From assembly GCA_965204755.1 (NCBI GenBank), contig OZ242011.1, positions 800,001 to 864,000 of the forward strand: 64,000 nucleotides of DNA, in the 5' to 3' direction. The notes under the pieces are model-generated. The model made no database searches. It was not told where the DNA came from and saw nothing but the letters and a program-made list of their open reading frames with translations. The stretch is from Candidatus Marinacidobacterium sp. (GTDB lineage: Bacteria; Acidobacteriota; Vicinamibacteria; Marinacidobacterales; Marinacidobacteraceae). A program made the translations under genes and the position numbers. This document shows, one piece after another, positions 1-64,000 of this stretch (the first letter of the stretch is position 1; every line of letters starts with the position of its first letter).

Positions 1-65
1 GCCCTCGGGCCCGCGCCCCGCCGGGGCTCGGGCCGCTCTCCGGAAGCGTCGCGGCAGGCGGGCCG

Positions 66-851
66 ATGATTTCCTCGGTCGCGGCGCTCCTCGCCGCCCG
101 GCTGGCGGGAGGCGTCCTGATCGCCGGCGCGGTCATCGCGCTGCGCCATCCGGCGCCGCCGGCGTATACCCGGTTCCTCCTCGCCGGGGCCGGCGGGGCC
201 TTGGCGCTCGCCGCGGCCGCCGGCCGGAACCGCCCGGAGGCGGCGCTCCTCGTCGTCCTGGTCCTCGCGGTCGCGGGGCTTTGGGCGGCCTGCCGTCCGG
301 CGCCGGGACGGGAGTCGGGGCGGTTCGGGGACCGGCCGCGGCTGCTCGCGGCGCTCATGATCCTGCTGGGCTTGGCGGCCGCGCTCGCTTCGCCGGCCCT
401 CGGGGGCGGCCCGGCGCCGGCGAGCCTCACCGCCCTGGCCGGCGCGCTGCTCGCCGGCTCCACCGCCGCCACGATGACGCTCGGCCACTGGTACCTGGTG
501 GACACCGCGCTCTCGATCCGGCCGCTGGCCTCCGGGGCGGCGCTGTTCCTCGGCGCCGCCGGGCTCCGCGCCGCCGTCGCCGCCGGCTTCCTGGTCTCCG
601 GCGGATACCTCGCCCTCCGCCTCGGGTCGCCGGCGGACCTGATCTATTCCACCACCGCGCTCTTCTTCTCCTTCCGGACGGTCACCGGGCTCCTGGCCCC
701 GCTCACGCTGGCGGCGCTGGTGCGGGCCACCGTGCGCATCCGCTCCACCCAGTCCGCCACCGGCCTGCTCTATGTGGCGCTCATCCTGGTCCTGTTCGGG
801 GAACTCACCGCGATCTTCCTGGAACTCCTGACCGGCGGGGCGCTGGCGTGA
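66..851 (+). CDS. Multi-pass membrane protein of unknown function (LGHWYL motif)
   Basis: 261 aa with about 7-8 hydrophobic segments and a conserved-looking TMTLGHWYLV...RSTQSATGLLY core. The ATG overlaps a TGA (ATGA) that may end an upstream gene. Confidence 0.75.
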   Translation: MISSVAALLAARLAGGVLIAGAVIALRHPAPPAYTRFLLAGAGGALALAAAAGRNRPEAALLVVLVLAVAGLWAACRPAPGRESGRFGDRPRLLAALMILLGLAAALASPALGGGPAPASLTALAGALLAGSTAATMTLGHWYLVDTALSIRPLASGAALFLGAAGLRAAVAAGFLVSGGYLALRLGSPADLIYSTTALFFSFRTVTGLLAPLTLAALVRATVRIRSTQSATGLLYVALILVLFGELTAIFLELLTGGALA

Positions 852-891
852 GCCGGCCCTGTTTCGAGGGCGCGGGCGTATCGTTGCGCGG

Positions 892-2214
892 ATGACCGAG
901 TCCCGACGCTCCGATACCCCTCCGACCGCAGCCTCGGCCGGCCGGCGGCGTTTCCTCTCGCGGGCCGCCGCGCCGCTCGCGCTGTGGCCGCTGGTTCCGG
1001 TCGCCCGGCTGGCCGGCGGCGGCGAAGGCCGCCGGAACCAAACGGAGGCCGTCCCGGAGTGGGTGCGGCGCGCGCGGCGCGAAATCCCCGCCGCCGGCGA
1101 GAGCCGTTACTTCCAGACCGGCGGGATCGGCCCCTCTCCGGACGCGGTCATCTCCGAGGTCCGGGAGAAACTGGAATTCCAGAACCGGAGCCCGGCGGAC
1201 CCCCGTTACTCCGCGCCGATGGCGGAGGTCGAGCCGGCGCTGAGGGCGCAGTTGGCCCGGGTCTTCGGCGCCGGGGAAGACGAGGTCGCGCTGACCCACA
1301 GCACTTCCGAAGGCATCTCCATCGCCGCCTGGGGTTTGGACTGGCGGCCCGGAGACGAGGTGGTGATCTCGAACACGGAGCACCCGGCGAATGTGATTCC
1401 CTGGTATGTCCTGCGGGACCGGTTCGGCATCGGCATCCGGGTGATGGACCTCTCGCCGGGAACCGACCTGCTCGCGGAAGCGCGAAGGAACCTGACGCCC
1501 CGCGCGCGGATGCTGAGCGTCAGCCATGTCTCCCGGAACAACGGACGCCGGCTGCGCGCGGGAGAATCGGCGGAACTCGGCTCGCTGCTCCGGGCGCGGG
1601 GCATCCTCTACCACCTCGACGGCGCGCAGGGCCCGGGCGCGGTCCCCGTGAACTTCCGCGAACTGGGTTGCGACTGTTACTCCACCTGCGGGCACAAGTG
1701 GCTGCTCGGCCCCAAGGGAACCGGCGTGCTCTTCGCGCGGCGCGAGTCGCTCGACGCCGTGCAGTTGAGTTGGGCCGGCGCGCACAGCCACGCGGAGATG
1801 GACTACGAGGGCGGCTACCGCCTGTTGCCGAGCGCGGCGCGTTACGAGTTCGGCACCCGCGCGCTGGCGGACTTCGCCGGCTTCGGCCGGGCGGTGGAAT
1901 GGATGGAGTCGATCGGCTTCCGCCGGATCGAGGAACGCATCGCGGCGCTCGTGGACTACGCGGGCGAATCGGCCCGCCGCACCGGACGGCTCTCCGTCTC
2001 CTCCCCGGAAACCCCGGAAGACCGCTCCGGCGTCTTCGTCGTCCGGCTGCCGGAAGGCGCCGACGCGACCGCGCTCTACCGCCGTCTCGCGGAGGAGCGG
2101 CAAGTCCTCGGCTCCCCGGTGCGGCGGGAGCGCGACTTCCGGCTGTCCATCCACTTCTTCAACACGCGGGAAGAGATCGAGGCGGCGCTGGAAGCGATCG
2201 CGGCCTCGGTCTGA
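892..2214 (+). CDS. Class V PLP-dependent aminotransferase (CefD/SufS-like fold) with Tat signal peptide
   Basis: GRRRFLS twin-arginine leader, EHPAN, DGAQ and TCGHKWLLGPKGTG (PLP lysine), RYEFGT. No desulfurase catalytic Cys loop seen. Confidence 0.85.
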   Translation: MTESRRSDTPPTAASAGRRRFLSRAAAPLALWPLVPVARLAGGGEGRRNQTEAVPEWVRRARREIPAAGESRYFQTGGIGPSPDAVISEVREKLEFQNRSPADPRYSAPMAEVEPALRAQLARVFGAGEDEVALTHSTSEGISIAAWGLDWRPGDEVVISNTEHPANVIPWYVLRDRFGIGIRVMDLSPGTDLLAEARRNLTPRARMLSVSHVSRNNGRRLRAGESAELGSLLRARGILYHLDGAQGPGAVPVNFRELGCDCYSTCGHKWLLGPKGTGVLFARRESLDAVQLSWAGAHSHAEMDYEGGYRLLPSAARYEFGTRALADFAGFGRAVEWMESIGFRRIEERIAALVDYAGESARRTGRLSVSSPETPEDRSGVFVVRLPEGADATALYRRLAEERQVLGSPVRRERDFRLSIHFFNTREEIEAALEAIAASV

Positions 2215-2254
2215 ACGCGCGTTTCGCTCCGCTCGTTCCGGAAGGTTTCGGGAG

Positions 2255-2722
2255 GTGGCCGGACGAAGCCCGGAAGTCGGCTTCTACTGCGACGGGTGCG
2301 ACCGCTATTCCACCTGGACTCCGCCTTTCGAGTCCGGCGACGACGCCTGCTCGCATTGCGGACGCGCCAATCCCCCGGAGGAGGCCGCGCGGGAGATCCC
2401 GGCCGGGGCGGGCGCCGGACTCGGCGACTGCCTCCAGTGCGGCAACCCGGAGATGTACCGGAAGAAGGATGTGCCGCAACAGGTCGGTTGCGCCGTCGTG
2501 CTGGGCGCCGTGGCGCTCTCCACCGCCGCTTACGCGGTATGGGACTTTCCCGGCGCCTTCGCCGTCTTCGCCTCCGTCGCCCTGCTCGACTTCCTGATCT
2601 ACCGCCGACTCGGCGAAGTCGTCGTCTGCTACCGCTGCCACGCCGAGTTCCGAAGATTCTCCGCCGACCCGCGCCACGGCGCGTTCGACATGCACCGCGC
2701 CGAAGAATACGAAGCCGAGTGA
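2255..2722 (+). CDS. Zinc-ribbon membrane protein
   Basis: Four CxxC pairs (CDGC, CSHC, CLQC, CYRC), with two TM helices between the third and fourth pair. Confidence 0.7.
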   Translation: MAGRSPEVGFYCDGCDRYSTWTPPFESGDDACSHCGRANPPEEAAREIPAGAGAGLGDCLQCGNPEMYRKKDVPQQVGCAVVLGAVALSTAAYAVWDFPGAFAVFASVALLDFLIYRRLGEVVVCYRCHAEFRRFSADPRHGAFDMHRAEEYEAE

Positions 2723-2879
2723 CCGCGCGACCGGCGGCGCGGAGGGGCCGCCCGACGGCCGAAGGACACCGGCGAAGGACACCGGCGAAGGAACGCCGGG
2801 AGTCGGCGTTAGTCTCCCCGCCCGCCGCCGTCCTTCCTCCGCTCGACCGAAGCGCCGGCCGCGAGCATTCCTCCCCGCC

Positions 2880-4097
2880 ATGTCCGTCCAGGTCTTCCAG
2901 AGTCCGCGGGCGCAGACCGAGCCGATCCCGGTCAACGCCGACACCAATCCGGTCAGCGTCCTCTCCGCCGACGAGCGGCTCCACTTCGCCGCCGCGCACG
3001 AAGTGGCCCTGGGCGAAGTGGCGCCCCGGAGCCGCGAGATGGAGCGGGCCGGCGAGATCCCGCCGGACCTGGTGGGGACGCTCGCCCGCTACGGTTTCTT
3101 CGGGGTGGCCGCGCCGGAACAGGTCGGCGGCAGCGGCCTCGACTTCTTCGGGGTCGTCCTCACGGTGGAGGCGCTCGCGCGGGCGGACGCCGCCGTGGCG
3201 CTGCTGGTGGATGTGCACAACACGCTCCTGGTGGGCGCGCTGAACGGTTTCGGAAGCGAAGAGCAGCGGCGGCGGCTTTTGCCGGCGGTCGCCCGCGACC
3301 GGATCGGCGCCTTCTCGCTCTCGGAGGCCGAGTCGGGGAGCGACGCCTTCGCGCTCCGCGCGCTGGCCCGGCGAACCGAAGGCGGCTTCTCGCTGAACGG
3401 GAGCAAGGCCTGGGTTTCGGGAGCGGCGCAGGCAGACCTGTTCCTCGTCTTCGCCCGGAACGAGGACGCGGGCGCAGCGGCCGACCGCGCCATCACCGGT
3501 TTCCTCGTGGAACGCTCGAATCCCGGCCTGGAGGTCGGGCCGCCGGAGAAGAAGGTGGGCCTCAAGGCGTCGAGCACCTGTCCGCTCTTCCTGAAGGACG
3601 CATTCGTTCCCGACGACATGGTGCTCGGTGAAGTCGGCGCCGGAAAGCGGATCGCGCTCTCGCTGCTCAACGAAGGCCGCATCGGCATCGCCGCGCAACT
3701 CGTCGGCATCGGCCAGGCGGCCCTGGACCTCGCCGTTTCCTACGCCGGGAAACGGCGGGCGTTCGGCAAACCCATCGGGGCGAACCAGGGCGTCCGGTTT
3801 TCGCTCGCCGACGCCGCGGCGGAAGTGGAGACGGCGCGCCTCCTCACCTGGAACGCCGCCCGGTTGGTGGACCAGGGCAACGAGGTGCGCTACGCCGCGG
3901 CGATGGCCAAACTGCGGGCGCAGCGCATGGCGGAAGCGGTGACTTCCCTCGCGGTCGAAATCCACGGAGGCGTCGGCTACACCGAGGACTGCCTCGCGGA
4001 GAAACTCTGGCGCGACGCCAAGGCCGGAACGATCTACGAAGGCACCGAAAACATCCAGTTGCTCACCATCGCCCACGGCCTCGGCCTGGACGAGTAA
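2880..4097 (+). CDS. Acyl-CoA dehydrogenase (short/branched-chain type)
   Basis: FSLSEAESGSDA, LNGSKAWVS, GRIGIAAQ, RRAFGKPI, IHGGVGY, IYEGTENIQ. Confidence 0.93.
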   Translation: MSVQVFQSPRAQTEPIPVNADTNPVSVLSADERLHFAAAHEVALGEVAPRSREMERAGEIPPDLVGTLARYGFFGVAAPEQVGGSGLDFFGVVLTVEALARADAAVALLVDVHNTLLVGALNGFGSEEQRRRLLPAVARDRIGAFSLSEAESGSDAFALRALARRTEGGFSLNGSKAWVSGAAQADLFLVFARNEDAGAAADRAITGFLVERSNPGLEVGPPEKKVGLKASSTCPLFLKDAFVPDDMVLGEVGAGKRIALSLLNEGRIGIAAQLVGIGQAALDLAVSYAGKRRAFGKPIGANQGVRFSLADAAAEVETARLLTWNAARLVDQGNEVRYAAAMAKLRAQRMAEAVTSLAVEIHGGVGYTEDCLAEKLWRDAKAGTIYEGTENIQLLTIAHGLGLDE

Positions 4098-4151
4098 CGC
4101 CGGCGGCGGCGACTACCGGCAGCGGCGACTACCGGCAGCGCCGCCGACCGG

Positions 4152-5639
4152 CTACGCGTCGGCCTTCGCCAGGGAAGCGGCGGTCTCGCGGATCGCCGCC
4201 CAGGCGTCCAGCACCTGTTCGCGCCGGGTATGGGTCTGCCCGACGACCAGGCGGAGGGCCACCCCTGCCGGAACCCGGGTATGGGTCAGGTAGAGCCGGC
4301 CGGAGCGGTTCAGGGTCTCCATCAGTCGAAGGTTGAAGTCGTCGAGCGAGCGGCGTCCGGCGTCGGACGGCTCGCCGCCCTTCCCCGGGGGAGCGGCAAG
4401 AAGAGCGCGGAAGGTCACCTGGTTCAGCGGCGCCGGAGCGAGCGACTCGAATCTCTCGTCCTCCCCGACCCGCTTCGCGAACTCCTGTCCGAGGGCCACA
4501 TGCTCCCGGAGATGGCGGCGGAGCCCCTCGGCGCCGTAGTGGCGGAGGACCAGCCAGAGTTTCAGCGCCCGGAACCGGCGGCCGAGCGGGATATGCCAGT
4601 CGCGGTAGTCGATTACGCCACCGGCTTCCGAAGCCCGGTTCTTCAGGTATTCGGGCGTCACCGAAAGCGTTTCGGTGAGCGCGCGGCGGTCGCGCACCCA
4701 GAAGGCGTCGCAGTCGAAGTTGGTGAACAGCCACTTGTGCGGGTTGAAACAGTAAGAGTCGGCGAACTCCACCCCGGCCTGCAGGTACCGGAACTCCGGA
4801 CACAGGAACGCCGCGCCGGCCATGGCGGCGTCCACATGGAGCCACAGTCCGTGTTCCTTCGCGATCGGCCCGATCTCCGCCAGCGGATCGAACGCGCCGG
4901 TCCCGGTGGTCCCGAGCGTCGCCGCGACGAAACAGGGGATCTTCCCGGCGGCCCGGTCGGCGCGCAGCAACTCGGCGAACGCCTCCGGGCGGGCGGCCCG
5001 GGTCTCCGGGTCCGCCGGGATCGAGCGCAGGTTCTCGCTGCCGAGGCCGGCGATCCGGACCGCTTTCAACAGCGAGGAGTGCGATTCCTCCGAGCCGTAA
5101 GCGACGAGCGGTGCCCGGACCCCGATCCGGTTGGACTCGAACCCGGTGGCCCGTTCCCGGGCGGCGAGCAGGGCGGTGAGCGTCGCCGAGGAGGCGGTGT
5201 CCTGGATCACGCCGCCGCCGGCGCCGTCCGAGCGGAACGCGGCCGGGAGATCGAGGAGTTCCGCCAGCCAGTCGAGGACCAGCGTCTCCAGTTCCGTCGC
5301 GGCCGGGCTGGTCGCCCAGAGCATCCCGTTGACCCCGATCCCGGCGGAGAGCAGTTCCCCGAGCACCGACGGCCCGGAGTTGTTCGACGGGAAGAACCCG
5401 AAGAAACTGGGATGCTGCCAGTGGAGCAGGCCCGGCGCGACGACCCGGTCGAGGTCGGCGAGGACCGCCTCGAAGGGCTCGCCGCGCTCCGGCGGATGCT
5501 CCGGCAGCAGCGCCCGGATCTCGCCCGGACGGACGGAGGGCGCCACCGGGAGGTCGCCGACCCGCCGCCAGTAGTCGGCGATCCAGTCGAGGACGGCGCG
5601 CCCGGCGGCGGCGAACTCCTCCGGGGTCTGGTGGTTCAC
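4152..5639 (-). CDS. Aromatic-L-amino-acid decarboxylase (group II PLP decarboxylase)
   Basis: HWQHPSFFGFFP, SPAATELE, HVDAA, NPHKWL, DYRDWHIPLGRRFRALKLW. Confidence 0.92.
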   Translation of the reverse strand: MNHQTPEEFAAAGRAVLDWIADYWRRVGDLPVAPSVRPGEIRALLPEHPPERGEPFEAVLADLDRVVAPGLLHWQHPSFFGFFPSNNSGPSVLGELLSAGIGVNGMLWATSPAATELETLVLDWLAELLDLPAAFRSDGAGGGVIQDTASSATLTALLAARERATGFESNRIGVRAPLVAYGSEESHSSLLKAVRIAGLGSENLRSIPADPETRAARPEAFAELLRADRAAGKIPCFVAATLGTTGTGAFDPLAEIGPIAKEHGLWLHVDAAMAGAAFLCPEFRYLQAGVEFADSYCFNPHKWLFTNFDCDAFWVRDRRALTETLSVTPEYLKNRASEAGGVIDYRDWHIPLGRRFRALKLWLVLRHYGAEGLRRHLREHVALGQEFAKRVGEDERFESLAPAPLNQVTFRALLAAPPGKGGEPSDAGRRSLDDFNLRLMETLNRSGRLYLTHTRVPAGVALRLVVGQTHTRREQVLDAWAAIRETAASLAKADA

Positions 5640-5696
5640 GGGTCGGAACTCTCCGGACGGTCGACGCCGACGCGGGCGCGGCGCTCCGCCCGCCGC

Positions 5697-6026
5697 TTAT
5701 CGGTCGAGCCGGTCGATCTTGGCCGCGAGGATGAAGTCGCTCTCGGTGAGCCCGTCCACCTTGTGGGTCCAGGTGCGGACTTCCACCCTCCCCCAGGCGA
5801 CGAGGAGGTCCGGGTGGTGCCCTTCCGCCTCGGCTACGGCGCCCACCCGGTTGGCGAAGGCCAGCGCCCCGGCGAAGTCGGGGAACTCGAACTTGCGGGA
5901 GATGTCGTGGTGGTTCCGGTGGGTCCACCCCTCGACTTCCCGCAGGTAGCGCTCGACTTCGGCCGGCTGGAGGGGGGGCACGCCGCCCCGGCAGGGAACG
6001 CAGTTCCGACTCGCCAGTTCGCTCAT
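5697..6026 (-). CDS. phhB: Pterin-4-alpha-carbinolamine dehydratase
   Basis: CVPCRGG, AEAEGHHPD, WTHKVDGLTESDFILAAKID. Confidence 0.93.
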   Translation of the reverse strand: MSELASRNCVPCRGGVPPLQPAEVERYLREVEGWTHRNHHDISRKFEFPDFAGALAFANRVGAVAEAEGHHPDLLVAWGRVEVRTWTHKVDGLTESDFILAAKIDRLDR

Positions 6027-6042
6027 CCCGGAATTATGTAGC

Positions 6043-6104
6043 GGCGCTGCCGGGCAGGATCGCGGCGCTGCCGGGCAGGATCGCGGCGCTGCCGGGCGGG
6101 ATCG
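6043..6104. repeat. Intergenic 21-bp tandem repeat x3
   Basis: CGGCGCTGCCGGGC(A/G)GGATCG repeated three times just upstream of the phhB -10 box. Confidence 0.85.
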
Positions 6105-6122
6105 CCGCGCCGCGCAGGCCGT

Positions 6123-7397
6123 TCACAGGTCGAGCAGCAGCGCGGCGAGGAGCGCGGCCCGGCGCGGGAGGTCCGAGACCACCACCCGCTCGTGCTCCGC
6201 GTGGGCGCCGTCGCCGAGCGGGCCGAGCCCGTCGAGCACCGGGACGCCGAGGCCGGCGAGGATGTTGCCGTCCGAGCCGCCCCCGGCGGCGCCCTCGGGA
6301 AGGGCCCAGTCGAGGACCGCGGCCAGGCGCCGGGCGGCGCCGTAGAGGCGGAGGACCTCCCCGGAGCGCGTCAGCGGCGGCCGGTTCACGCCGCCGCTCC
6401 AGAGCGCCCGGGCGTCCGGATGCTTCGGACGCAGCGCCCGCAGCCGGCGCAGGAGCAACTCCCCGGCCTCCGGGTCGTCCATCCGCAGGTCGAGGTCCGC
6501 CGAGGCCTCCGCCGGAACCACATTCGTGCGCGTGCCGCCGCGGACCAGCCCCACATTCACCGTGACCCCGGCGGCGGGGTCGGAGAGCGCCGCCGCTTCG
6601 AGGGCCAGCCGGGAGAGTTCGAGGATGGCGTTCACCCCGCGCTCCGGGTCGAGTCCGGCGTGCGCCGCCCGCCCGGTGACTTCCACCCGGAGCAGCCCCA
6701 CCCCGCGCCGCGAGGTCTTCACGCCGCCGCCGGGAAGCGACGGCTCCATGACCAGCCCGGCCGCCGCCCGGCGCCCTTCCCGCTCCAGGAGGGCCCGGCT
6801 GGCCTGGCTGCCGGCCTCTTCGTCGGTGTTCCAGAGGACGGTCAGCGGGCGGCTCGGCTGCCGGCCGGCGGCGTCGAGCGCCCGGAGCGCCCAGATGGTC
6901 TGGACCAGCCCGGCCTTCATGTCATAGACGCCGGGGCCGGTCGCGGCGCCCCGCTCGATCCGCCACGGAAGCCGCGCCAGCGTGCCGTGGGCCCAGACGG
7001 TGTCCACATGGCCGAGGAGCAGCAGCGGGGCGGCGTCCGCCCGGCGGCCGGGGAGCCGGACCAGCCGGTGGGGGCCGCGCTCGGGCATTCCGGGAACGGC
7101 GGCGGCGGGGACGGCTTCGCTCTCGGCGTCGGCGAGGAAGCCCCCGCCCCCGGCGTGGAAGCCCCCGCCCCCGGCAAGGAGTTCGCCGACGGCCTCCTCG
7201 CCCATGCGGGCGGTGGCCCGCGGATCGTCCGTCGGGGACTCGATGGAGACGAATCTCCCCAGCATCGCCTCCATGCCGGAGGCGCGTTCCGCGAGCCAGG
7301 CGGCCAGCCCGGCGATGCATTCCGAGCCGGCGGCGTTCTCCAAACCGGCGGCGCTCTCCGACCCGGCGGCCGGCCCCGGTTCGGAACCGGCCGCCAT
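6123..7397 (-). CDS. M20 family metallopeptidase (carboxypeptidase G2-like)
   Basis: GHVDTV, GPGVYDMKAG, DEEAGS, MEP, AHAG, GGGSDGN, GAHAEHE. Confidence 0.9.
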   Translation of the reverse strand: MAAGSEPGPAAGSESAAGLENAAGSECIAGLAAWLAERASGMEAMLGRFVSIESPTDDPRATARMGEEAVGELLAGGGGFHAGGGGFLADAESEAVPAAAVPGMPERGPHRLVRLPGRRADAAPLLLLGHVDTVWAHGTLARLPWRIERGAATGPGVYDMKAGLVQTIWALRALDAAGRQPSRPLTVLWNTDEEAGSQASRALLEREGRRAAAGLVMEPSLPGGGVKTSRRGVGLLRVEVTGRAAHAGLDPERGVNAILELSRLALEAAALSDPAAGVTVNVGLVRGGTRTNVVPAEASADLDLRMDDPEAGELLLRRLRALRPKHPDARALWSGGVNRPPLTRSGEVLRLYGAARRLAAVLDWALPEGAAGGGSDGNILAGLGVPVLDGLGPLGDGAHAEHERVVVSDLPRRAALLAALLLDL

Positions 7398-7410
7398 GCC
7401 CTCGTCCGGG

Positions 7411-9135
7411 TTACTGGACGACTTGGGCCCTCACTTCCTTCAGCACGGCGAGCCGCTCCGCCAGGGTCGGGTCCGCCGATCCCATCCCCGCGGCCTTCTC
7501 GTAGTGCGCCGCCGCGTTGTCCACCCGCTCGTAGTCCGCCGCGCTGGCCGGGCAGCCCACTCCGGCGGCGGTCATCCGTTCGCCGAAACCGGCGTCCTTC
7601 AACCGGCAGGGGCCGTACTGCACCTGCGCCACTTCGGTCCAGGCGAGCATCCGGAACGGCTCGCCCCAAGTCGGCAGCGCCTCCGCCGCGGCGTTGAACT
7701 CGCCCTGCGCCCCGGCGAAGTCGTTCGTGCCCATGTATCCCTGACCGAGCGCGTAGTGCGCGAGCCCGAGATCGTTCGGGTCGCCGTCCTCGGGGAAGTT
7801 CGGGATCCCCTTCTGGAGTTGGGGCACCGCTTCCGCCACCTGCTGGTTGGAGAAGAGCGCGATCCCGTACTCGACGGCCGCGGACGGGTCTTCCGGAGCG
7901 GCCTCGACCGCCTTCTGCGCGGCGGCCAGCGCCCCGGCCACATCCTGGGACTGGCGGAGATGGCGCGCCTGCTGGTGGTAGGCCCGGCCGACCCCGGCCA
8001 TCGCGTCCTCCGACTCCGGATTCGCCGAGCGCGCTTCCTCCATGTGGGTCACCGCCGAGTCGAATTCCCGCGCCTCGATGGCGAACTCGCCGAGCGCCAG
8101 GTGCGCTTCCGCCCGGGCGCTCGGGGGCGAGTTGTCGAGCGCGACCACCCGCTGGTAGTAGGACTGCGCCTGGGAGGCGTTCCCCTGGGCCTCGTACACC
8201 TGGGCGAAGGCGAGGTTCGCGGCCGGGTCCTCGGCGTTGACGGTGATCGCCATGGCCAGGTCGCCGTAGGCCTCGGCCTGGTTGCCGAGGGCGTTGTTCG
8301 CGAGGCCGCGGATCCCGTAGGCCGAGGTCAACTGGTCGTTCCGGTCGAGCGCCTCGGTGGCCGACGCCACCGCCCGCTCGAAGTCCTCGCGGTCGAAGTA
8401 GATCTGGGCCAGCCCGGCGTGGGCGCGCGCGGTCTCCGGGTCGAGTTCGACGGCGCGGAGGAAGGACTGTTCCGCCGCGTCGGTGTCCCCGCCGGCGACG
8501 GACGCCTGCCCCAGCGTCGAGTGCGCCACGGCGCTGTCCGGGTCGAGTTCGAGCGCCCGGCGCGCCATGTCCGCCGCTTCGGCGAACTCCTCCTGCCGGG
8601 CCAGGCTGGCGCCCAGCGAGAGGTAGATGGCGGGGTCCGGGTTCGGGTTCAACTCCAGGACTTTCCGCCCGGCCTCGATGACCTGGAGGTCGTCCTCCAT
8701 CATCGAATAGGCGGCGGTCATCTCGGTCCACGCCTCGAGGACTTCGTCCGCATCCTCGAGCCCTTCGAGGGCCATCGAGTACGAAGTCGCCACATTTTCC
8801 CATTCCCCGAACTGCCGGTACACGCGGGCGAGTTCGAGGCGGACATCGTGCCGATCCGGATAGTCCTCGAGCACCCGGAGGAACCAGCCCCCGGCCTGGC
8901 TGAGGGCGGCCTGCTCCGCCTCCGCGTCCCCGTCGCGCGCCGCTTTTTCGGCGTCGTCGAGGAAGTCCTCGGCGAGATCCAGGGCGCGGGAGACCTCGCG
9001 CCGGGTGAGCGGCTCGCGCTCTTCCTCCTCCTGGGCGAAGCCCGGAGCGGCGACGGCGGCGAGGACGAAGCCGGAGACGGCGAAGAGGCGCAGTCGGCGC
9101 AGGGCGTGGGCGGCGAGCCCGGTCACATCAGACAT
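7411..9135 (-). CDS. Exported tetratricopeptide-repeat protein
   Basis: Start refined to ATG 9135 (GGAGG 5 nt upstream). Signal peptide ending APGFA|QEE, then many TPR-like helices (ALELDPDSAVAH, AVELDPETARAH). Confidence 0.85.
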   Translation of the reverse strand: MSDVTGLAAHALRRLRLFAVSGFVLAAVAAPGFAQEEEEREPLTRREVSRALDLAEDFLDDAEKAARDGDAEAEQAALSQAGGWFLRVLEDYPDRHDVRLELARVYRQFGEWENVATSYSMALEGLEDADEVLEAWTEMTAAYSMMEDDLQVIEAGRKVLELNPNPDPAIYLSLGASLARQEEFAEAADMARRALELDPDSAVAHSTLGQASVAGGDTDAAEQSFLRAVELDPETARAHAGLAQIYFDREDFERAVASATEALDRNDQLTSAYGIRGLANNALGNQAEAYGDLAMAITVNAEDPAANLAFAQVYEAQGNASQAQSYYQRVVALDNSPPSARAEAHLALGEFAIEAREFDSAVTHMEEARSANPESEDAMAGVGRAYHQQARHLRQSQDVAGALAAAQKAVEAAPEDPSAAVEYGIALFSNQQVAEAVPQLQKGIPNFPEDGDPNDLGLAHYALGQGYMGTNDFAGAQGEFNAAAEALPTWGEPFRMLAWTEVAQVQYGPCRLKDAGFGERMTAAGVGCPASAADYERVDNAAAHYEKAAGMGSADPTLAERLAVLKEVRAQVVQ

Positions 9136-9352
9136 GGAAACCTCCGCGGAAACCTCGGCGGGACTGCCGGTGGAGGGCCAGCCCGCCGAAGCATCGTAGA
9201 ACAGCCGGGAGATTCCGGCAACTTGCCTCCGGGCGCGTTCGGTTCGGTCGGGCGATCCGGCCGCGGCGGCGGCTCTCCCGGATTCACCTTTCGCCGCGTC
9301 CGGTGGGCGGCGACCGGACTCGCCGCCCCCACTCCGTATAGTCCCGCCCGCT

Positions 9353-12300
9353 TTGGCCATCCGGTTCTTCACCAGTCCCCGCGCGGCGGAGCGGATCGCC
9401 GCGGCGCACCGGTTCCTGGACGGCGCGGCCGGCGGCGGAGACACCCGGCGGCCCGGCCCCGGCGGGGCGGAGAGCCCGGACGGAGCGAGGCAGCCGGGCT
9501 TCGTCGCGCTCGGGGCGGCGGACTACGCGGCCCGCGTGTTCTGCCGGGAGCGGGCGGCGCGGGACGGCGCGCTGGTCGGCGCCGTCGCCCGGGGGCTGGA
9601 CTCGCTGGCGCTCGAACTGGCGAAGCCGGAACTCGTCGCCGCCGGCCTCCGCGGCCCCTCCCGCGCGGCGGAACTCGCGGTGGTCACCCAAGTCGTCCAC
9701 GACGCCGGCAAGCGCGGCGAACTGGACCGGTTCTCGGCGGTCGCCGACGGGCCCGGCCTCGCCCGGCGGCTCCACCTGACCTTCTCGGAGTTCCGGGCGG
9801 CCGGGATCTCCCCGGCCCGCGTGGCCGCCGCGGGCGACGCCACCCTCGGCCGGCTCTACGGGGGGAGCGCCGCGGAGTGGGAGCGCGCCGGGTTCGCCGA
9901 CCGCAGCCGCGTGCTCGAAGCGGCGGCCCGCCGGCTGGAGGCCGGCGGGGGCCCGATCCCCGGGCGCCCGTTGGTGCTGCTGGATCCGAAACTCGGCGAG
10001 CCGCTGCTGCGCGCCTTCGTCTCCCGGCTGGCGGAACGGGCCGCCGAGGTGTTCGTCACCTGCCCGGAAGCCGACCGGGCGACCCTCGCGGCCCTCGAGG
10101 CGATGGGGGGACGGAGGACGGAGGCGCCGGGAGTCGGATCGTCCTCCGCCCGGGGGGGAGAGGCGGTCGTCAGCGCGGTGCAGCGTCGGCTGTTCCGGGC
10201 CGGAGCGGACGCGCCGGGCGAGAGTTCGGGGCGGGAGGCCGGGGAGCGGGTCGGGGAGGGCCTCTCGGTGATCGGGGCGCCGGGGCCGGCCGCCGAAGCG
10301 CTCGAGATCGCCCGCGTCTTCCTCCGGGAGGCCCGCCGCGGCGTCCGCTTCGACCGGATGGCGGTGCTCGTGGAGGACCCGCCGGCCTATGTCCCGGCCC
10401 TCGCCGAGGCGTTCGGGCGCGCCGCGGTCCCGGTGTTCTTCGAGACCGGGGCGGAACCGCCCTCCCGCGCCGGCCGGGCGTTCCTCGCCCTGCTGGACAC
10501 CGCGCTCGGCGGCCTGTCGGCCGAGGCGTTCCTGGAATACCTGTCCCTCGACGCGGACCGCCGCGGCGCCGGCCCGGACGAGGAGGAGGAGAAGGCCGGC
10601 GGCCCTGCCGCGCCGAAGGCCCCCCCGGGGGACGCCGCCGGGGGCGAGTCCGCCGAGCCGGGGGACGAACCCTCCGCGGCGGCGCGCCTCCGGGAGCAAC
10701 TGGTCCTGGAAGCCGGCGTGATCGGCGGACTCGACCGCTGGGAGCGGCGGCTGGAGCGGCTCGCCTCCCGGCTCGCCGAAGCAGAGCGGAAAGCGGCGGA
10801 CGATGCGGGGGCGGACGACGACGCAGCCGGGGAGCGCCGGCGGCGGCAGGAGGAACTCGCCCGCCTGCAGGCCGAGGCGCTGCCCGTCCTCCGGCGCCTC
10901 TCGAAACTGCCCGACGAAGCGACCCTCGGCGAGTGGGTCGAAGCGCTCGGGGGGCTCGCGCGCGCCGCCCTGCGCGACCCGGGCCCGGTGCTCGCCGCCC
11001 TCGGCGCCACCGCGCCGATGGCCGAATTCGGGCCGCTCGCGCTCGCGGAAGTCCGGCGCGAACTCGCCGACCGGCTGCTCGACGCGCGCGGCCGGAGTCC
11101 GGGCGAACGCCAGGGCCGGGTGCTCGTGGCGCCCATCGGGAAGGCGCGCGGGCTGGCCTTCGAGGTCGTGGCCCTCCCCGGCCTCTCGGAGGGCGCGTTC
11201 CGCAGCGGGCTGCGCGAGGACCCGATCCTCCCCGACCGCCTCCGGCGCGAGTTCGGCGACGACCTGGCGACCGGGCCCGACCGGCTGGAGGGCGTGCGGC
11301 TCCGGCTCTCCCTCGCCGCGGGCGCGGCGATCCGCCGCCTGGTGCTCTCCTACTCCTCGCTCGATGTGGTCGAGGGCCGCCCCCAAGTGCCCTCCTACTA
11401 CTTCGCGGAGGCGCTCCGCGCCGCGCTCGGGCGGACGCCCACGCTGGACGAGATCGCGGACCTCGCCGGTCGGGAGAGCGCGGTCCGCCGGGGGCTGCGG
11501 GCGCCGAAGCGGCCGGAGTGGGCGCTCGACCGGCGGGAGTTCGACCTGGCTTCGATCAGCCGGGCGCTGTCCCCCGAGGAAGACGCCGCGCGCGCCGCGC
11601 CTCCGGCGGGCGGCGGGTCGGGCGCCGCCGCCTACCTCCTCCGGGACGAACGGCTCGCCGCCGCGCTCCGGCAGGAATACATGCGCGACAGCCGGACCTG
11701 GCAGCCCGCCGACGGCTTCCTCCGGCCGGGGCCGGAAGCGGCGGCGGCGCTGGGGCGGCACCGGCCGACCGCGCGCGCCTACTCGGCCACCGGCCTCGAG
11801 GCCTACGCCAAGTGCCCCTACCGGTTCTACCTGAAGAACATCGCCCGCCTGCGCCCGGTGGAGCGGCCGGCGCCGCTGACGCAGGTGGACGCATTGACCC
11901 GCGGTTCGCTCGTCCACGAGGTGTTCTTCGAACTCGGCCAGCGAATGCGCGAACTCGGCCTGACCCCCCTGCCCGCCGAACGCCTCGACGAAGCGCTCCG
12001 CCTCCTCGACGAGGTCTTCGAACCGGTGGCGGCGTCCTTCCGCGAGGAGGCCGCGCCGGAGATCGAACGCATCTGGAACGACCAGTTGGACGGCCTGCGG
12101 AGCGACTTCCGGGGCTATCTCGAACGCGAGGCCGACAGCGGCTGGCGGGTGGTGGCGAACGAACTCACCTTCGGCATGGCCCCGGTGGGGCCGGCCGACC
12201 CGGCGAGCCGGCGGGATCCCGCGGTCCTGCCCGGCGGCCTGCGGCTCCGGGGCTCCATAGACGCCGTGGAGGAGGCGGCGGACGGGAAGCGCCGCGTCAC

Positions 12301-12715
12301 CGACTACAAGTCCGGGCGGGTCAATGTCCGCGCGAGCGAGGAGCGGCGCGCGCTCTTCGGCGGCGAAGCGCTGCAGCCGGCGCTCTACGCCTTCGCCCAG
12401 GAGGCGCTGACCGGAAAGCCGACCGAGGCCGGCCGGCTCTACTACACGACGCTGCGCGGCCAGTACCACCAGACCGTCGTGCCTACCGCCGAGGCGGAGG
12501 CGCGCGGCCTGCTGCTGCGCTTCACCGACTTCCTCGAGCGGGCGGTCGCGGAAGGGCGCTTCCCGGCGGCGCCCAACCCGAACGCCCGCTATTCGGAGTG
12601 CGCCTACTGCGACTACCTGTCGATCTGCGGCCCCGGCCCGGCGGCGTACGCGGAACGGAAGAACCCGGAGGGCCGGGCGCTCGCCGAGGTGCGCGAGGTC
12701 CGGGCGCTCCCGTGA
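9353..12715 (+). CDS. addB: ATP-dependent helicase/nuclease subunit B (AddB/RexB-like)
   Basis: Degenerate helicase body (ARGLAFEVVALPGLSEG). C-terminal PD-(D/E)XK nuclease RGSIDAVE...DYKSG, with Fe-S-type cysteines KCPYRF...CAYCDYLSIC. Translationally coupled to addA. Confidence 0.82.
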   Translation: MAIRFFTSPRAAERIAAAHRFLDGAAGGGDTRRPGPGGAESPDGARQPGFVALGAADYAARVFCRERAARDGALVGAVARGLDSLALELAKPELVAAGLRGPSRAAELAVVTQVVHDAGKRGELDRFSAVADGPGLARRLHLTFSEFRAAGISPARVAAAGDATLGRLYGGSAAEWERAGFADRSRVLEAAARRLEAGGGPIPGRPLVLLDPKLGEPLLRAFVSRLAERAAEVFVTCPEADRATLAALEAMGGRRTEAPGVGSSSARGGEAVVSAVQRRLFRAGADAPGESSGREAGERVGEGLSVIGAPGPAAEALEIARVFLREARRGVRFDRMAVLVEDPPAYVPALAEAFGRAAVPVFFETGAEPPSRAGRAFLALLDTALGGLSAEAFLEYLSLDADRRGAGPDEEEEKAGGPAAPKAPPGDAAGGESAEPGDEPSAAARLREQLVLEAGVIGGLDRWERRLERLASRLAEAERKAADDAGADDDAAGERRRRQEELARLQAEALPVLRRLSKLPDEATLGEWVEALGGLARAALRDPGPVLAALGATAPMAEFGPLALAEVRRELADRLLDARGRSPGERQGRVLVAPIGKARGLAFEVVALPGLSEGAFRSGLREDPILPDRLRREFGDDLATGPDRLEGVRLRLSLAAGAAIRRLVLSYSSLDVVEGRPQVPSYYFAEALRAALGRTPTLDEIADLAGRESAVRRGLRAPKRPEWALDRREFDLASISRALSPEEDAARAAPPAGGGSGAAAYLLRDERLAAALRQEYMRDSRTWQPADGFLRPGPEAAAALGRHRPTARAYSATGLEAYAKCPYRFYLKNIARLRPVERPAPLTQVDALTRGSLVHEVFFELGQRMRELGLTPLPAERLDEALRLLDEVFEPVAASFREEAAPEIERIWNDQLDGLRSDFRGYLEREADSGWRVVANELTFGMAPVGPADPASRRDPAVLPGGLRLRGSIDAVEEAADGKRRVTDYKSGRVNVRASEERRALFGGEALQPALYAFAQEALTGKPTEAGRLYYTTLRGQYHQTVVPTAEAEARGLLLRFTDFLERAVAEGRFPAAPNPNARYSECAYCDYLSICGPGPAAYAERKNPEGRALAEVREVRALP

Positions 12716-16521: not shown

Positions 16522-16564
16522 AGCCGGGCGGCGCTCGACCGCGCGCCGGGGCGCCGGCGCGCCG

Positions 16565-17683
16565 CTACCGCGCTCGGGTGTGCGCCCGGATGTAGTCCAT
16601 GAGGCTCGGGATTCCCGGTTCCCACTCCGGGGTAGGGCCCGGCCGCCAGACGAAGCCGAGATGTCGAAGCGTGCGCTTTGCTGCCGCGATGTCGGCGGCC
16701 GGCCCGTCCCCGATCACTCCTCGCGCGATGTCGTCGAGCGCCGGCGCCGAGAGCGTTGCGCCCTTCCCGAAAGCCTCGGCGACGGCCCGCGCCACCGGCA
16801 GCAGGTCTTCGGCCTCGAGTTCTTCGTAGCGCGCCAGGTAGTACAGGCCACGCTCCCGCTCGAACGCCGGCCGCGCGGCTTCCACATCGGGGACCGAAAC
16901 GCTCGAACGACCGGAACTCCGCGCCCGCCGCCAAACGAGACTGCCCCAGATCTGGAGGAAATACGGATAGCCGTGGCTCTGGCCGACGATCTCCTCCAGC
17001 GCCGCTGCCGCGATCCCCACGCCGGCGCTCCGCAACGGTCGCTCGACCGCCGAAGACGACGAAGCCGGGTCGAGCCGATTGATCGGGAGTTGACGCGCCC
17101 GAGACCAGAAGGAAGCCCCCATGCCCGAGAGGCGGTCCCGAATGTCCGGGGTCCCGGCGAGAACGAGCAGGAGGGGCCACTTCGCCGCAACTTGCTGGCT
17201 GGCGTTCAGCAACTCCCTGCCGACCTCCACGCCCAGCGTGTGGGCCTCGTCCAGCAGAACGACCAGCGGCTTCCGACTCGCCCGGGCTCGAAGGACCTCG
17301 TAGGCGGGAGGCGTCTCGCGGTGCCCGGGCCGCCATTTGAGTCCGGCCAACGAAACCTCATCGGGAGTCAGGGTTTCCCACCAGGAGGTAGGCAGCAGCC
17401 GCTCGGCGAGTTCCGCCGAACTCCCGACGACACTCGGAGTGAAGCGTGCGACTTCTACACCGGCGTTCGCTTCGAGTTGGCGCTCGAGCCAAACGAGCAG
17501 GGTCGTCTTCCCGTTACCGCGCGGGCCGTACAGGATCACTTCGCCGGGGGGCGGCACGCGGTCTTCCAAATCCGCGACCAACGCCAGGAGCACTTCCTGC
17601 TCGGCGCCACGCCCCGCCAAATGCGGCGGCAAACGACCGTCGCCCGGTCGGAACAGCCCAGAGGACCGGCGCGCTTCGGCCAT
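16565..17683 (-). CDS. AAA-family (AAA_16/ATPase_2-like) P-loop ATPase with putative C-terminal winged helix
   Basis: FRPGDG..PPHLAGR, Walker A GPRGNGKT, Walker B LLDEAH, GYPYFLQ, WEPGIPSLMD. Start refined to ATG 17683, with TATACT 7 nt upstream. Confidence 0.85.
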   Translation of the reverse strand: MAEARRSSGLFRPGDGRLPPHLAGRGAEQEVLLALVADLEDRVPPPGEVILYGPRGNGKTTLLVWLERQLEANAGVEVARFTPSVVGSSAELAERLLPTSWWETLTPDEVSLAGLKWRPGHRETPPAYEVLRARASRKPLVVLLDEAHTLGVEVGRELLNASQQVAAKWPLLLVLAGTPDIRDRLSGMGASFWSRARQLPINRLDPASSSSAVERPLRSAGVGIAAAALEEIVGQSHGYPYFLQIWGSLVWRRARSSGRSSVSVPDVEAARPAFERERGLYYLARYEELEAEDLLPVARAVAEAFGKGATLSAPALDDIARGVIGDGPAADIAAAKRTLRHLGFVWRPGPTPEWEPGIPSLMDYIRAHTRAR

Positions 17684-18000: not shown

Positions 18001-18031
18001 CTGTCCAGAAACCGCCGCGGCCGATTCCTAC

Positions 18032-29690: not shown

Positions 29691-31652
29691 ATGAAACTGG
29701 ACAGAATCCTCAACGAGGTCGAGTCCCGATCGGTGGAGTTGCCCGAATTCCAACGCGGCTATGTGTGGAACCGAGAACAGGTTCGCAACCTGTTCTGGTC
29801 CCTCTACCAGCGAAATCCGGTCGGAAGCCTCCTCATGTGGGAAACCGCAGCCGGAGCGATCAAGGTCAAAGGTAACGGCGCGGTCGCTGCCGGCCAAAAC
29901 ATCAAGTTGCTTCTCGACGGCCAGCAGCGCATCACCTCCGCCTACGGCGTGATTCGCGGGGAAGCGCCGGCGTTCTTCGACGGGAACGCGGAGGCGTTCA
30001 CCGACCTTCACTTCCACATAGACGAAGAGAAGTTCGAGTTCTACCAGTCGACGAAGATGGCATCCGATCCGCTTTGGATCGATGTTTCTCGTTTGATGAG
30101 GAACGGTCTGACTCCGTACTTCCGAATCATGGAGACCGTGGATCGCGAAGCGGCGAACCGCAGGCTGGAACGACTCAACACACTGCTACAAGTCAAGGAA
30201 ATCGACATCTACATCGAGGAGATCACGGGGAGCGACCGCTCCCTCGATGAAGTAGTGGACATCTTCAATGCCGTGAACAGCGGTGGCACGAAACTCTCCA
30301 AGGGGGATTTGGCGCTGGCCAAGATCTGCGCCGGATGGCCGGAGGCTCGGGATGCGATAAAGGATCATCTGCGCCGCTGGAAGAAAGTCGGATACGACTT
30401 CACGCCCGACTGGTTGCTTCGCTGTCTCAACACAGTGCTCACCGGCGAAGCCAACTTCCGCTTTCTCGACTACAAGAAGCCCGCGGAGATCCAAGAGGGC
30501 CTGAAGCGCGCGGCCAACGCTGTGAACCATTCCCTGAACCTCATCGCAGACCGACTCGGACTCGACCACGATCGCGTGTTGTTCGGACGCTACGCGATTC
30601 CGGTGATGGCGCGCTACTTCGACCGGAAGGACGGATTCCTCGGCGGCAGCGAGAGCGACAAGTTGCTGTTCTGGTACCTGCAGGCAGCCATGTGGGGTCG
30701 TTTCTCCGGTTCGACGGCAACGAAAATCGATCAAGATATCGAGGCTATGGACAGCGGTGGACTCGAAGGGCTTCTGAAGCAGATGCACCTCTGGCACGGC
30801 CGCTTGGGCGTGGTACCGAGCCACTTCGAGGGATGGGGCCTCGGAGCACGGTTCTATCCGATCCTGTACCTGCTCACGCGAATGGGCGGCGCGAAGGACT
30901 TCTGCTCGGGAGTCGAACTCAGGAAAGGACTTCTGGGCGAGGGCAGCAGTCTCGAGGTCCACCACATCTTTCCCAAGGCGCAGTTGTACAAGCACGGATT
31001 CTCTCGCGCCGAAGTCAACTCGCTGGCGAATTTCTGTTTCCTCACCGCGGACTGCAACAAGAGCATCAGCGATAGCCTTCCCGAGACTTACTTCCCGGAG
31101 AAGGAGGGGAAGAACCCCGGGGTCTTGGCCTCCCAGTGGATTCCCAAAGACGAGAGCCTCTGGCGTATCGAGAACTACCGCGACTTCCTCGAAGCCCGCC
31201 GTAGCCTCTTGGCGACGGAAGCCAATTCCCGACTCGCCGGATTGCTGCACGGGGAGACCCGATGGATGGAGGGCGGCGAGACCGAGTCCCAAGCGCGGCC
31301 GGTCGTCGGGGGGATCACGAGCGAGGAAGAGCGGCGTGAACTCGAGGCCCTGAAAGCCTGGGCCACCGAGCAGGGACTCTCCCCCGGAAAACTACCGTTC
31401 GACTTCTCCGACCCGAAGACCGGCGAACAGGTCGCCGTGTTCGACCTCGCGTGGCCGGGCGGCATCCAGGACGGTCTCACTCACCCGGTGGCCGTGCTGC
31501 TCGACGAAGGGGACGAACTCATCCGCTTCGCGAACGACGCCGGCTACCGCTTCTTCACTTCCACCGACGCCTTCAAGCGGTATGTGGAGAAGGACATCCT
31601 GAAACGCGGCGAGACTGGGGAGGCCGACAGCGGCCCGGCCTCCCCGAACTGA
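29691..31652 (+). CDS. DUF262 + HNH (GmrSD-like) restriction/defence protein
   Basis: LPEFQRGYVW, LLDGQQR, FNAVNSGG (DUF262), and HHIFP...N..N (HNH/DUF1524-like). Visibly lower GC than its neighbours. Confidence 0.85.
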   Translation: MKLDRILNEVESRSVELPEFQRGYVWNREQVRNLFWSLYQRNPVGSLLMWETAAGAIKVKGNGAVAAGQNIKLLLDGQQRITSAYGVIRGEAPAFFDGNAEAFTDLHFHIDEEKFEFYQSTKMASDPLWIDVSRLMRNGLTPYFRIMETVDREAANRRLERLNTLLQVKEIDIYIEEITGSDRSLDEVVDIFNAVNSGGTKLSKGDLALAKICAGWPEARDAIKDHLRRWKKVGYDFTPDWLLRCLNTVLTGEANFRFLDYKKPAEIQEGLKRAANAVNHSLNLIADRLGLDHDRVLFGRYAIPVMARYFDRKDGFLGGSESDKLLFWYLQAAMWGRFSGSTATKIDQDIEAMDSGGLEGLLKQMHLWHGRLGVVPSHFEGWGLGARFYPILYLLTRMGGAKDFCSGVELRKGLLGEGSSLEVHHIFPKAQLYKHGFSRAEVNSLANFCFLTADCNKSISDSLPETYFPEKEGKNPGVLASQWIPKDESLWRIENYRDFLEARRSLLATEANSRLAGLLHGETRWMEGGETESQARPVVGGITSEEERRELEALKAWATEQGLSPGKLPFDFSDPKTGEQVAVFDLAWPGGIQDGLTHPVAVLLDEGDELIRFANDAGYRFFTSTDAFKRYVEKDILKRGETGEADSGPASPN

Positions 31653-44581: not shown

Positions 44582-44653
44582 CTAGTACCGGAACCCCGGA
44601 GGCGGCCTCCCGGTCCCGGGCCGGAACGGGCCGAGTCGGGTCGGAACGGCCAT
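44582..44653 (-). pseudogene. Truncated third copy of the tandem AAA ATPase
   Basis: MAVPTRLGPFRPGTGRPPPGFRY* aligns to the first ~18 codons of the 45865 and 47056 copies, with a homologous upstream region and a decayed -10 box. Confidence 0.75.
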
Positions 44654-47056: not shown

Positions 47057-47142
47057 CGCCCGCCAAGTATAGGAACGCCGAAACGCCGATCCGCGGCGGG
47101 CCGCCGTTCGTCCGGCGGCGGGGCGCGGTCCCCGCGGGCCGA

Positions 47143-64000
<16,858 letters not shown>

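Follow-up and report, generated by a model that had tools for sequence, protein, structure and literature searches.

Why does a 64,000-nucleotide stretch of a Candidatus Marinacidobacterium sp. chromosome contain neither AGCT nor ACGT? The window (the whole stretch analysed, 1..64000, corresponding to G000:C1:800001-864000, where G000 is the genome under study) has a GC content of 73.2%, and a preliminary description made from its letters had reported both words as apparently absent, against a naive expectation of about 150 copies each. Exact counts gave 0 AGCT and 0 ACGT on either strand, compared to 153.8 of each expected from base composition and 121.1 and 141.1, respectively, from a second-order Markov model (Markov-2). 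Comparison words were plentiful, as had been described for the first three of them (GATC 413, TCGA 468, ACCT 171, AGGT 184), and the four transition products of the missing words were increased: AGTT 133 (observed/expected ratio, O/E, 1.70), AACT 156 (1.74), ATGT 70 (1.31) and ACAT 100 (2.09).

The same was observed for the whole genome, a single contig of 3,975,858 bp. AGCT occurs 332 times for 7,446 expected (O/E 0.045, Markov-2) and ACGT 265 times for 7,147 (O/E 0.037), the lowest two ratios among all 256 tetramers, CTAG coming next at 0.13, and the O/E of the four transition products is 1.5-1.7. The longest stretch without either word, 153,520 bp (genome 776181-929701), contains the window. 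Both words are 4-bp palindromes, and their composition-corrected deficit was found in coding and non-coding DNA alike. With counts and Markov ratios this far from expectation in the window and in the genome, the depletion is real, and it is larger than the preliminary description supposed.

Genes of unusual composition make no exception, as had also been noticed at the outset. A gene of the GmrSD_N (DUF262) family of modification-dependent (Type IV) restriction enzymes (29691..31652, + strand; PF03235, E 4e-26) has a GC content of 0.606, below that of its surroundings. It holds 0 AGCT and 0 ACGT for about 6.9 expected each, together with 16 AGTT+AACT and 12 ATGT+ACAT. Similarly, a giant repeat-rich open reading frame (ORF) from the ORF list, with more than 5,600 codons (47143..63999, − strand, open at the window end) and initially called a putative adhesin, contains neither word for about 39.6 expected of each. 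Its GC content at third codon positions (GC3) is 0.95, and a long antisense ORF shadows it.

To set the deficit against coding constraints, 2,719 genes were called with a GC3-trained codon model (covering 87.9% of the genome), and expectations were derived for each reading frame from the actual protein sequences, with genome-wide synonymous codon usage held fixed. In total, 129 AGCT were present for 8,471 expected (0.015) and 163 ACGT for 6,937 (0.023). By frame, the observed and expected numbers were 27 and 1,727 for AGC|T, 68 and 6,492 for AG|CT, 34 and 252 for A|GCT, 37 and 2,078 for ACG|T, 83 and 4,630 for AC|GT, and 43 and 229 for A|CGT. The deficit deepened when only genes reaching a GC3 of at least 0.88 were considered (2,029, hereafter core genes): there, AGC|T (9/1,294), AG|CT (25/4,878), ACG|T (14/1,509) and AC|GT (32/3,473) fell to O/E 0.004-0.010, and the third frame stood at 7/127 (0.055) for A|GCT and 14/104 (0.135) for A|CGT. 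The codon swaps noted earlier for Gln/Glu-Leu and Asp/Tyr/Asn-Val are genuine and, in core genes, near-absolute. GAC+GTN occurs 14 times and GAT+GTN 1,687 times, while before Ala GAC:GAT is 6,446:361, giving an odds ratio of about 5e-4. Likewise, CTN Leu codons come after GAG 6 times and after GAA 3,295 times, with TTG after GAG 1,136 times, and AGC+TTC was found twice for 384 AGT+TTC. The site-forming codon pair is therefore disfavoured about 2,000-fold.

The replacement words follow the genetic code. Among the 2,719 genes, transition products were increased in frames where they are synonymous (AGT|T 4.7x, AA|CT 2.7x, AG|TT 1.8x, AT|GT 7.1x) and close to or below expectation in the others (ATG|T 0.94, A|GTT 0.71, A|ACT 0.83, A|TGT 0.90, A|CAT 1.09, AC|AT 1.11, AAC|T 1.01). 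Single-step synonymous escapes are limited to xAA or TTG for xAG|CTx, to xAT for xAC|GTx and to AGT for AGC|T, which accounts for an enrichment confined to synonymous frames.

The depletion also extends to the proteins. In core genes, the dipeptides requiring xAC-GTx were under-represented, with O/E of 0.46 for Asp-Val, 0.53 for His-Val, 0.62 for Asn-Val and 0.65 for Tyr-Val; Glu-Leu (0.73) and Lys-Leu (0.77) were reduced to a lesser degree. The pooled [DNHY]-Val ratio was 1.09, 1.12 and 1.02 in three sets of non-depleted relatives, 0.48 in the sister species G001 and 0.72 in G005, which belongs to another genus of the family. Compared to the pooled relatives, Asp-Val is the most depleted dipeptide among those with enough counts, and the 16 lowest also include His-Val, Asn-Val and Tyr-Val. 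We further compared 104 protein pairs, each matching G000 with one of five family genomes (46,974 aligned residues, 70.8% mean identity; a column enters the count anew for every outgroup, so that the columns are not independent). Orthologues from the window neighbourhood had 124 [DNHY]-Val in G000 for 225 in the outgroups (0.55), and the highly conserved rpoB regions gave 0.87. Most other dipeptide classes remained at 0.97-1.02, the exceptions being [EQK]-Leu (0.87), [EQK]-Phe (1.32) and the Ile classes (0.73-0.77). D/N/H/Y-Val dipeptides are thus roughly halved relative to orthologues in non-depleted relatives, the commonest replacements being His-Val to Gln-Val, Asp-Val to Glu-Val and Asp-Val to Asp-Leu, with few to Asp-Ile. 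Our literature searches returned no report of a dipeptide-level effect of site avoidance, the survey supplements (PMC4687349, PMC6471742) lying outside their scope.

Some dipeptide values stand apart. D/N/H/Y-Ile was not raised (0.78-1.08 in core genes, 0.73-0.89 in paired orthologues) although Val-to-Ile is the easiest escape, which our reading leaves unexplained. Several dipeptides unrelated to both words were also low relative to the relatives: Ile-Asp (0.58) and Ile-Ile (0.57), both unexplained, and Val-Tyr (0.73), a pair that can be encoded by the AccI word GTCTAC.

The purge is limited to a narrow lineage. We sampled 20 kb around rpoB in G000, G001, G005 and 17 other relatives (9 of the family, 8 of the order). 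In this region, G000 had AGCT 5/37 and ACGT 1/35 (observed/expected), G001 15/40 and 6/22, and G005 62/60 and 8/42, while the 17 other relatives were normal for both words. Larger samples agreed with this picture: in 420 kb of G001, a congener, AGCT was at 112/738 (0.152) and ACGT at 106/622 (0.170), and in 220 kb of G005 only ACGT was depleted (44/343, 0.128; AGCT 633/754, 0.84). Family genomes other than these three were sampled over 2.4-60 kb each. Among the remaining 16 (2.4-20 kb each), no clear depletion was observed except in G007 (locus L289), a fragmented genome, 86% complete, with ACGT at 8/28 in 20 kb and normal AGCT (50/54). In the pooled non-depleted family genomes (loci L102-L111 and L277-L286), the PvuII word CAGCTG was at 27/112 with AGCT itself normal; the family may have had a pressure on a six-base word containing AGCT.

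Alignment of G000 with G001 (311 kb, 78% identity) revealed losses on both sides. AGTT in G000 stood opposite AACT in G001 at 88/832 positions (10.6%), compared to 0-1.0% for 15 control word pairs, and ATGT opposite ACAT at 2.8%, compared to 0-0.6% in controls. Such an excess of mismatched products therefore points to independent destruction of shared ancestral sites, through different strands, in the two species; as judged from this alignment, the purge continued after they split.

What removed the sites? We consider it most likely, with a probability of about 0.68, that AGCT and ACGT were eliminated by long-lasting selection against the sites themselves, most probably as restriction avoidance. 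Both words are classical four-base restriction targets, AGCT for AluI-like and ACGT for MaeII/HpyCH4IV-like specificities. In the proposed scenario, they would be, or would recently have been, cut by four-base Type II restriction enzymes in the lineage, so that each site would be a liability whenever its presumed methylation was incomplete, and any site-destroying mutation harmless to the gene would be favoured. In coding DNA the cheapest of these would be synonymous, and in the two commonest frames synonymous means C-to-T or G-to-A, which explains why the replacements had first been described as deamination products. This reading, the second of the two offered by the preliminary description, fits all tests run. 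The depletion, its spread across frames and non-coding DNA, its lineage limits, the parallel losses in two species, the non-deamination routes and the dipeptide effect are all observed; restriction as the selective agent and the genes that could encode it are what we infer, no AGCT or ACGT enzyme having been identified.

The first of those two readings invoked C5-methyltransferases (MTases) without effective repair: a methylated inner C would be hypermutable, by spontaneous or MTase-catalysed deamination, with no selection on the site. The genome does carry six C5-MTase genes, the transition products are raised genome-wide, and the [EQK]-Phe value of 1.32 in paired orthologues is what C-to-T change of xAG CTC would produce. 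In addition, among G001 sites lost in G000, central transitions made up 22/38 changed ACGT (ATGT 14, ACAT 8) and 17/45 changed AGCT (AGTT 8, AACT 9), compared to about 5-12% of losses for the control words ACGC and AGCC. The DISCRIMINATING tests, covering Thr codon choice, non-synonymous frames, intergenic spacers, Vsr genes and a CCWGG control, nevertheless argued against passive deamination. In spacers of at most 400 bp (200,063 bp in total), AGCT (10/233, 0.04) and ACGT (8/238, 0.03) were depleted 25-30-fold, and yet no product was raised (AGTT 0.80, AACT 0.87, ATGT 0.88, ACAT 0.94); the claim that sites were replaced by their C-to-T products thus holds for synonymous coding frames but not for spacers. 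ACA, the synonymous deamination product of ACG|T, goes practically unused: before a T-starting codon (n=4,084) Thr was encoded by ACC (79.7%), ACT (19.0%), ACA (1.0%) or ACG (0.3%), with the caveat that NNT codons are generally commoner before T in G000. Where five non-depleted family genomes had ACG|T (46 aligned cases, not independent), G000 had ACC|T in 20 and ACT|T in 10, and ACA|T was not among its 12 commonest outcomes, which cover 42/46 cases. Frames with only non-synonymous deamination routes were still depleted 7-18-fold in core genes, the non-synonymous replacements seen against orthologues included AGGT (21), ACCT (14) and AAGT (9) as well as ACAT (15), and D/N/H/Y-Ile, the expected bottom-strand deamination product, was not raised. 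Repair genes are also present, since six PF03852 (Vsr) matches lay above the cut-off, one with an internal stop and most adjoining the six C5-MTase genes; CCWGG, the presumed target of a Dcm-like MTase set with an EcoRII-like endonuclease and Vsr, is undepleted (O/E 0.94). Finally, a rate excess of about 2,000-fold would be needed against the codon bias, and methylation raises C-to-T rates by tens of fold. Six vsr genes and a codon-pair bias of this size fit selection better than passive decay of 5-methylcytosine (5mC). Taken together, these results speak for selection on the sites and leave C5-MTases without repair unsupported as the driver; decay by mutation alone is improbable. The roughly 10-fold weaker depletion of A|GCT and A|CGT relative to the other frames, at first read as favouring hypermutation, was dropped as an argument because a modest difference in loss rate, or a mutation-selection balance with GC-to-AT input, would give the same pattern.

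Selection could also act for a reason other than restriction, such as an endoribonuclease cleaving AGCU/ACGU, an expression cost of methylated sites, or targeting by a mobile element or a nuclease of the community. Both words being palindromes, targets in DNA and RNA are indistinguishable by strand; amino-acid pairs are affected, which implies strong selection per site, no cognate endonuclease was found, and pandoraviruses are reported to have lost AGCT without an explanation (bioRxiv 10.1101/712018). However, short intergenic spacers are depleted as much as genes, the most abundant RNAs (tRNA and rRNA) keep sites, the words are classical restriction targets, and an AccI gene-and-avoidance pair exists in the same genome (see below), so that we regard such a cause as rather unlikely, if somewhat less so than decay by mutation. 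An artefact, in which methylated AGCT and ACGT were miscalled as their transition products during assembly, is by far the least probable explanation. Long-read basecallers can miscall bases at modified motifs, and both the C-to-T/G-to-A replacements and the AGTT-versus-AACT disagreement of the two assemblies are the pattern expected of strand-dependent miscalls. However, miscalling of modified bases would take no account of reading frame, whereas the changes are filtered by the genetic code and overwhelmingly synonymous: xAG CTC always became xAA CTC, never xAG TTC, Asp-Ile is uninflated, and neither has Leu-CTC drifted to Phe nor Val to Ile. GAA-CTC (2,301) is about as frequent as GAA-CTG (960) and GAG-TTG (1,136) combined (2,096), as in the control GAC-CTC 2,575 : GAC-CTG 2,502, and 23 tRNAs retain AGCT. 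We also located window positions 2001-12000 in 18 runs from 6 studies (labelled as sponge or marine metagenome, or by organism) and compared the contigs of four. One was identical and may be the source; the three others (X1 and X15 spanning the whole segment, X5 about 80% of it), from runs of three other studies with unrecorded platforms, differed by about 0.5-1.3% where they covered it. None of the 40 variants listed (of 183 in total) restores AGCT or ACGT, a result that carries no weight alone as only 1.2 site-creating variants would be expected by chance among 40. In homology searches, RpoB matched MAGs of Acidobacteriota at 55-63% and the acyl-CoA dehydrogenase retrieved distant sequences only; the organism is apparently a sponge-associated acidobacterium.

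General codon-context effects were observed alongside. In all eight four-fold families of core genes, T-ending codons made up 4-19% before a T-starting codon and 0.2-1.5% before A or G, except GTN before A (5.7%), and CTC was strongly favoured over CTG after T-ending codons. We had considered the excess of GAA-CTC over GAA-CTG as a memory of ancestral codons that would speak for a recent purge, and dropped this idea in view of the strong context effects.

Restriction avoidance can be followed in this genome for another specificity. An AccI-family endonuclease gene lies outside the window (G000:C1:3373839-3374816, − strand; PF09545, E 3.6e-95, 319 bits), and the AccI words (GTMKAC) are depleted genome-wide: GTCGAC 416/2,076, GTAGAC 69/336, GTCTAC 44/275 and GTATAC 24/63, with O/E ranging from 0.16 to 0.38 (0.16-0.21 for the first three). 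This gene together with its depleted words is an internal positive control for restriction avoidance in G000. GTCGAC is also low in G001 (54/277) and G005 (19/90); when the non-depleted family genomes are pooled, its deficit is milder (45/156).

Candidate genes for the four-base specificities were sought among the modification genes, which comprise 6 C5-MTases and 26 matches to PF01555, and among several putative endonucleases. Two cassettes stood out. The M3 cassette (G000:C1:1259931-1263768) consists of a C5-MTase and two partners, R3a and R3b, assigned by PADLOC to PDC-M33A/B; the M6 cassette (G000:C1:1516353-1521298) of a C5-MTase, three partners (R6a, R6b, R6c) and Vsr. Of 28 family genomes, the M3 type is present in G000 and G001 only (73% orthologous in G001), and the M6 type in G000, G005 and G001 only (74% in G005; a relative at 42-43% in G001). 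Inside the family, both cassettes thus co-occur with the depletion, a weak lead to a candidate cause, drawn from gene content. That they form an uncharacterised four-base restriction system driving the purge (C5-MTase and Vsr cassettes with a PDC-M33A/B-like pair at M3 and a three-gene set at M6) seems doubtful to us. If it were true, the system would be so toxic to its own host that about 99% of two tetranucleotides were lost and four dipeptides halved, and the lineage would be a natural case of a host proteome rewritten by a defence system.

Several observations weigh against these cassettes and against restriction in general. No AGCT- or ACGT-specific enzyme was found among the MTases and candidate endonucleases of G000. 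The cassette partners include no recognisable nuclease: R3a, R3b, R6a and R6b are without Pfam match, and an AlphaFold model of R3b (mean predicted local distance difference test score 87.4) retrieved nothing from the PDB at E <=1e-3. Depletion was predicted for distant genomes with such cassettes, and this prediction failed in 6/6 cases (G411, G379, G179 and G376 for M6/ACGT, G288 and G379 for M3/AGCT): phylum genomes whose cassettes are 53-61% identical (40-60% being given for the M6 type) were undepleted, 4/4 for M6 and 2/2 for M3, and those distant cassettes themselves hold AGCT and ACGT at the normal density of their flanks. Within the family, the M6-like cassette of G001 contains 11 ACGT and 7 AGCT, and G007, with its ACGT at 8/28, yielded no M6-type gene in an assembly that is 86% complete. 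A benefit per site large enough to fix amino-acid changes would be unusual for self-restriction. Lastly, transitions are the commonest single outcome of the recent losses, and deamination may supply part of the mutations.

Other searches on the modification genes were less informative. NCBIfam names only M1 (Dcm-like), and a homologue search with M3 gave generic names and no specificity. In the MTase comparison, identity was lower in windows of the target recognition domain than in the motif regions, although not decisively. R6c gave only a weak Pfam match to DUF6339, R6a weakly matches PDC-M33A in PADLOC, the partners fall in clusters of 'hypothetical protein' only in the ESM Atlas, and BLASTP between M3 and M6 partners was marginal. 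The name 'PDC-M33' was not found in a literature search. Neighbourhoods of the M3 and M6 types recur in distant phylum genomes (L243, L245, L272-L276), and the large partners share a motif GG-x-[YF]-G-[IF]-GK. For M2 and the 291-aa protein beside it (G000:C1:1860291-1862863), no orthologue was found in 5 relatives. The Dcm-like C5-MTase (NF007772, 415 bits), the EcoRII-like endonuclease (EcoRII-N, EcoRII-C) and a Vsr stand together at G000:C1:1048685-1053851; with CCAGG/CCTGG at O/E 0.94, this system is either a recent arrival or without selection on its own sites.

Surviving sites are unevenly distributed. The 1-kb windows with GC below 0.65 (287/3,975) account for 134 of all 332 AGCT and 143 of all 265 ACGT, and those with GC of at least 0.72 for 54 and 40, compared to about 4,300 of each expected from base composition. 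AGCT is retained in 23 of 67 tRNAs predicted by ARAGORN, mostly in the D-arm word TAGCTC, and further sites are found in the rRNA operon region and in a repeated 20-bp motif. Survivors in tRNAs, in the rRNA region, in a repeated motif and in low-GC islands are what strong purging should leave.

Avoidance of Type II restriction-modification (R-M) recognition sites in host genomes was reportedly described by Gelfand & Koonin in 1997. It has been attributed to self-cleavage under incomplete methylation in the passages of PMC4687349 and PMC2588503 used here. In such cases, surveyed by Rusinov et al. (2015, PMC4687349), the deficit of short palindromes is genome-wide and lineage-specific, deepens with longer residence and is shallower in horizontally acquired DNA. 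G000 resembles these cases, and its AccI-family gene with depleted GTMKAC is a textbook pairing. It differs by a far deeper depletion (O/E 0.04 genome-wide and about 0.005-0.01 in the core) of two four-base words, by cognate enzymes that are not assigned, and by reaching the amino-acid level. No ratios as low were seen in the avoidance literature examined, of which the supplementary tables (PMC4687349, PMC6471742) could hold comparable ones; a passage of the latter article lists ACGT among predicted targets of dcm methylases. In Helicobacter pylori, an R-M-rich bacterium, the relevant passage of PMC2588503 describes ACGT, GTAC and TCGA as strongly under-represented, ACGT both within genes and outside them, and places the surviving sites mostly in rRNA genes. 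G000 belongs to another phylum, is GC-rich and has lost AGCT as well; the depths are not comparable since that passage gives no figures. A-clade pandoraviruses, with megabase GC-rich genomes, have (nearly) lost AGCT from genes and intergenic regions in a clade-specific way; in the portion of the preprint cited, the authors found neither methylation of the site nor restriction or methylase genes that would match it, and did not settle on a cause (bioRxiv 10.1101/712018). Unlike these amoeba viruses, G000 is a bacterium crowded with methyltransferase genes, for which restriction is a ready explanation. Vertebrate CpG decay by 5mC deamination, as outlined in part of PMC3077040, is similar in the depletion of a word with a methylatable C and in the increase of TG/CA-type words in bulk counts. 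In contrast, products in G000 are up only where synonymous and not in non-coding DNA, other escapes are used, and Vsr genes are present.

Site avoidance, although well known, is usually a modest statistical bias, and G000 is an extreme and unusually informative case of it. Of the 16 four-base palindromes, two have all but vanished from a 4 Mb chromosome, through a purge that outweighs a GC3 codon bias of about 0.9 and can be seen under way in two sister species. The lineage therefore offers a natural system for measuring the selection that defence systems exert on the host genome, for separating selection from methylation-driven mutation, and for finding the responsible four-base cutters, possibly of an undescribed type. 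On the practical side, tetranucleotide-based binning and codon-pair models will misbehave on such genomes.

Two features outside the window deserve mention among the places where sites survive. The first is an 11-mer core, AATTGTGTATA, which is AT-rich, mostly continues with GCTC, GCTG or GGT, occurs in 100 copies and is a source of many surviving AGCT. Its loci lie in G000:C1 near 357.9, 756.0, 1208.0, 1660.0, 2045.5, 2895.5, 2970.8, 3119.1 and 3494.2 kb. The cores form paired arrays of about 4-9 direct repeats each, with a period of 20-21 bp (in some cases about 30 bp); at the three loci inspected, paired arrays are intergenic and separated by about 150-200 bp. They resemble iteron or operator arrays. 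The second is a defence island (G000:C1:2393071-2398640) encoding a C5-methyltransferase, a second GmrSD (N and C domains), an N4/N6 methyltransferase and a 643-aa GHKL-ATPase/nuclease-like protein matching PADLOC Type II restriction endonuclease models. The 20-kb bin with this island has 15 ACGT, the most of any bin, 6 of them in three island genes.

In the window itself, a Pfam-assigned acyl-CoA dehydrogenase gene (2880-4097, + strand) and a pyridoxal-dependent decarboxylase gene (4152-5639, − strand) served as anchors for the non-depleted comparison, the orthologues of these housekeeping genes (2880..5639) being 73-79% identical in 5/5 family genomes. Two further palindromes, which the preliminary description had not mentioned, are scarce there: TTAA is absent (4.6 expected) and CTAG occurs twice (38.9 expected), at 44582..44585 and 47143-47146 (genome positions 844582 and 847143).

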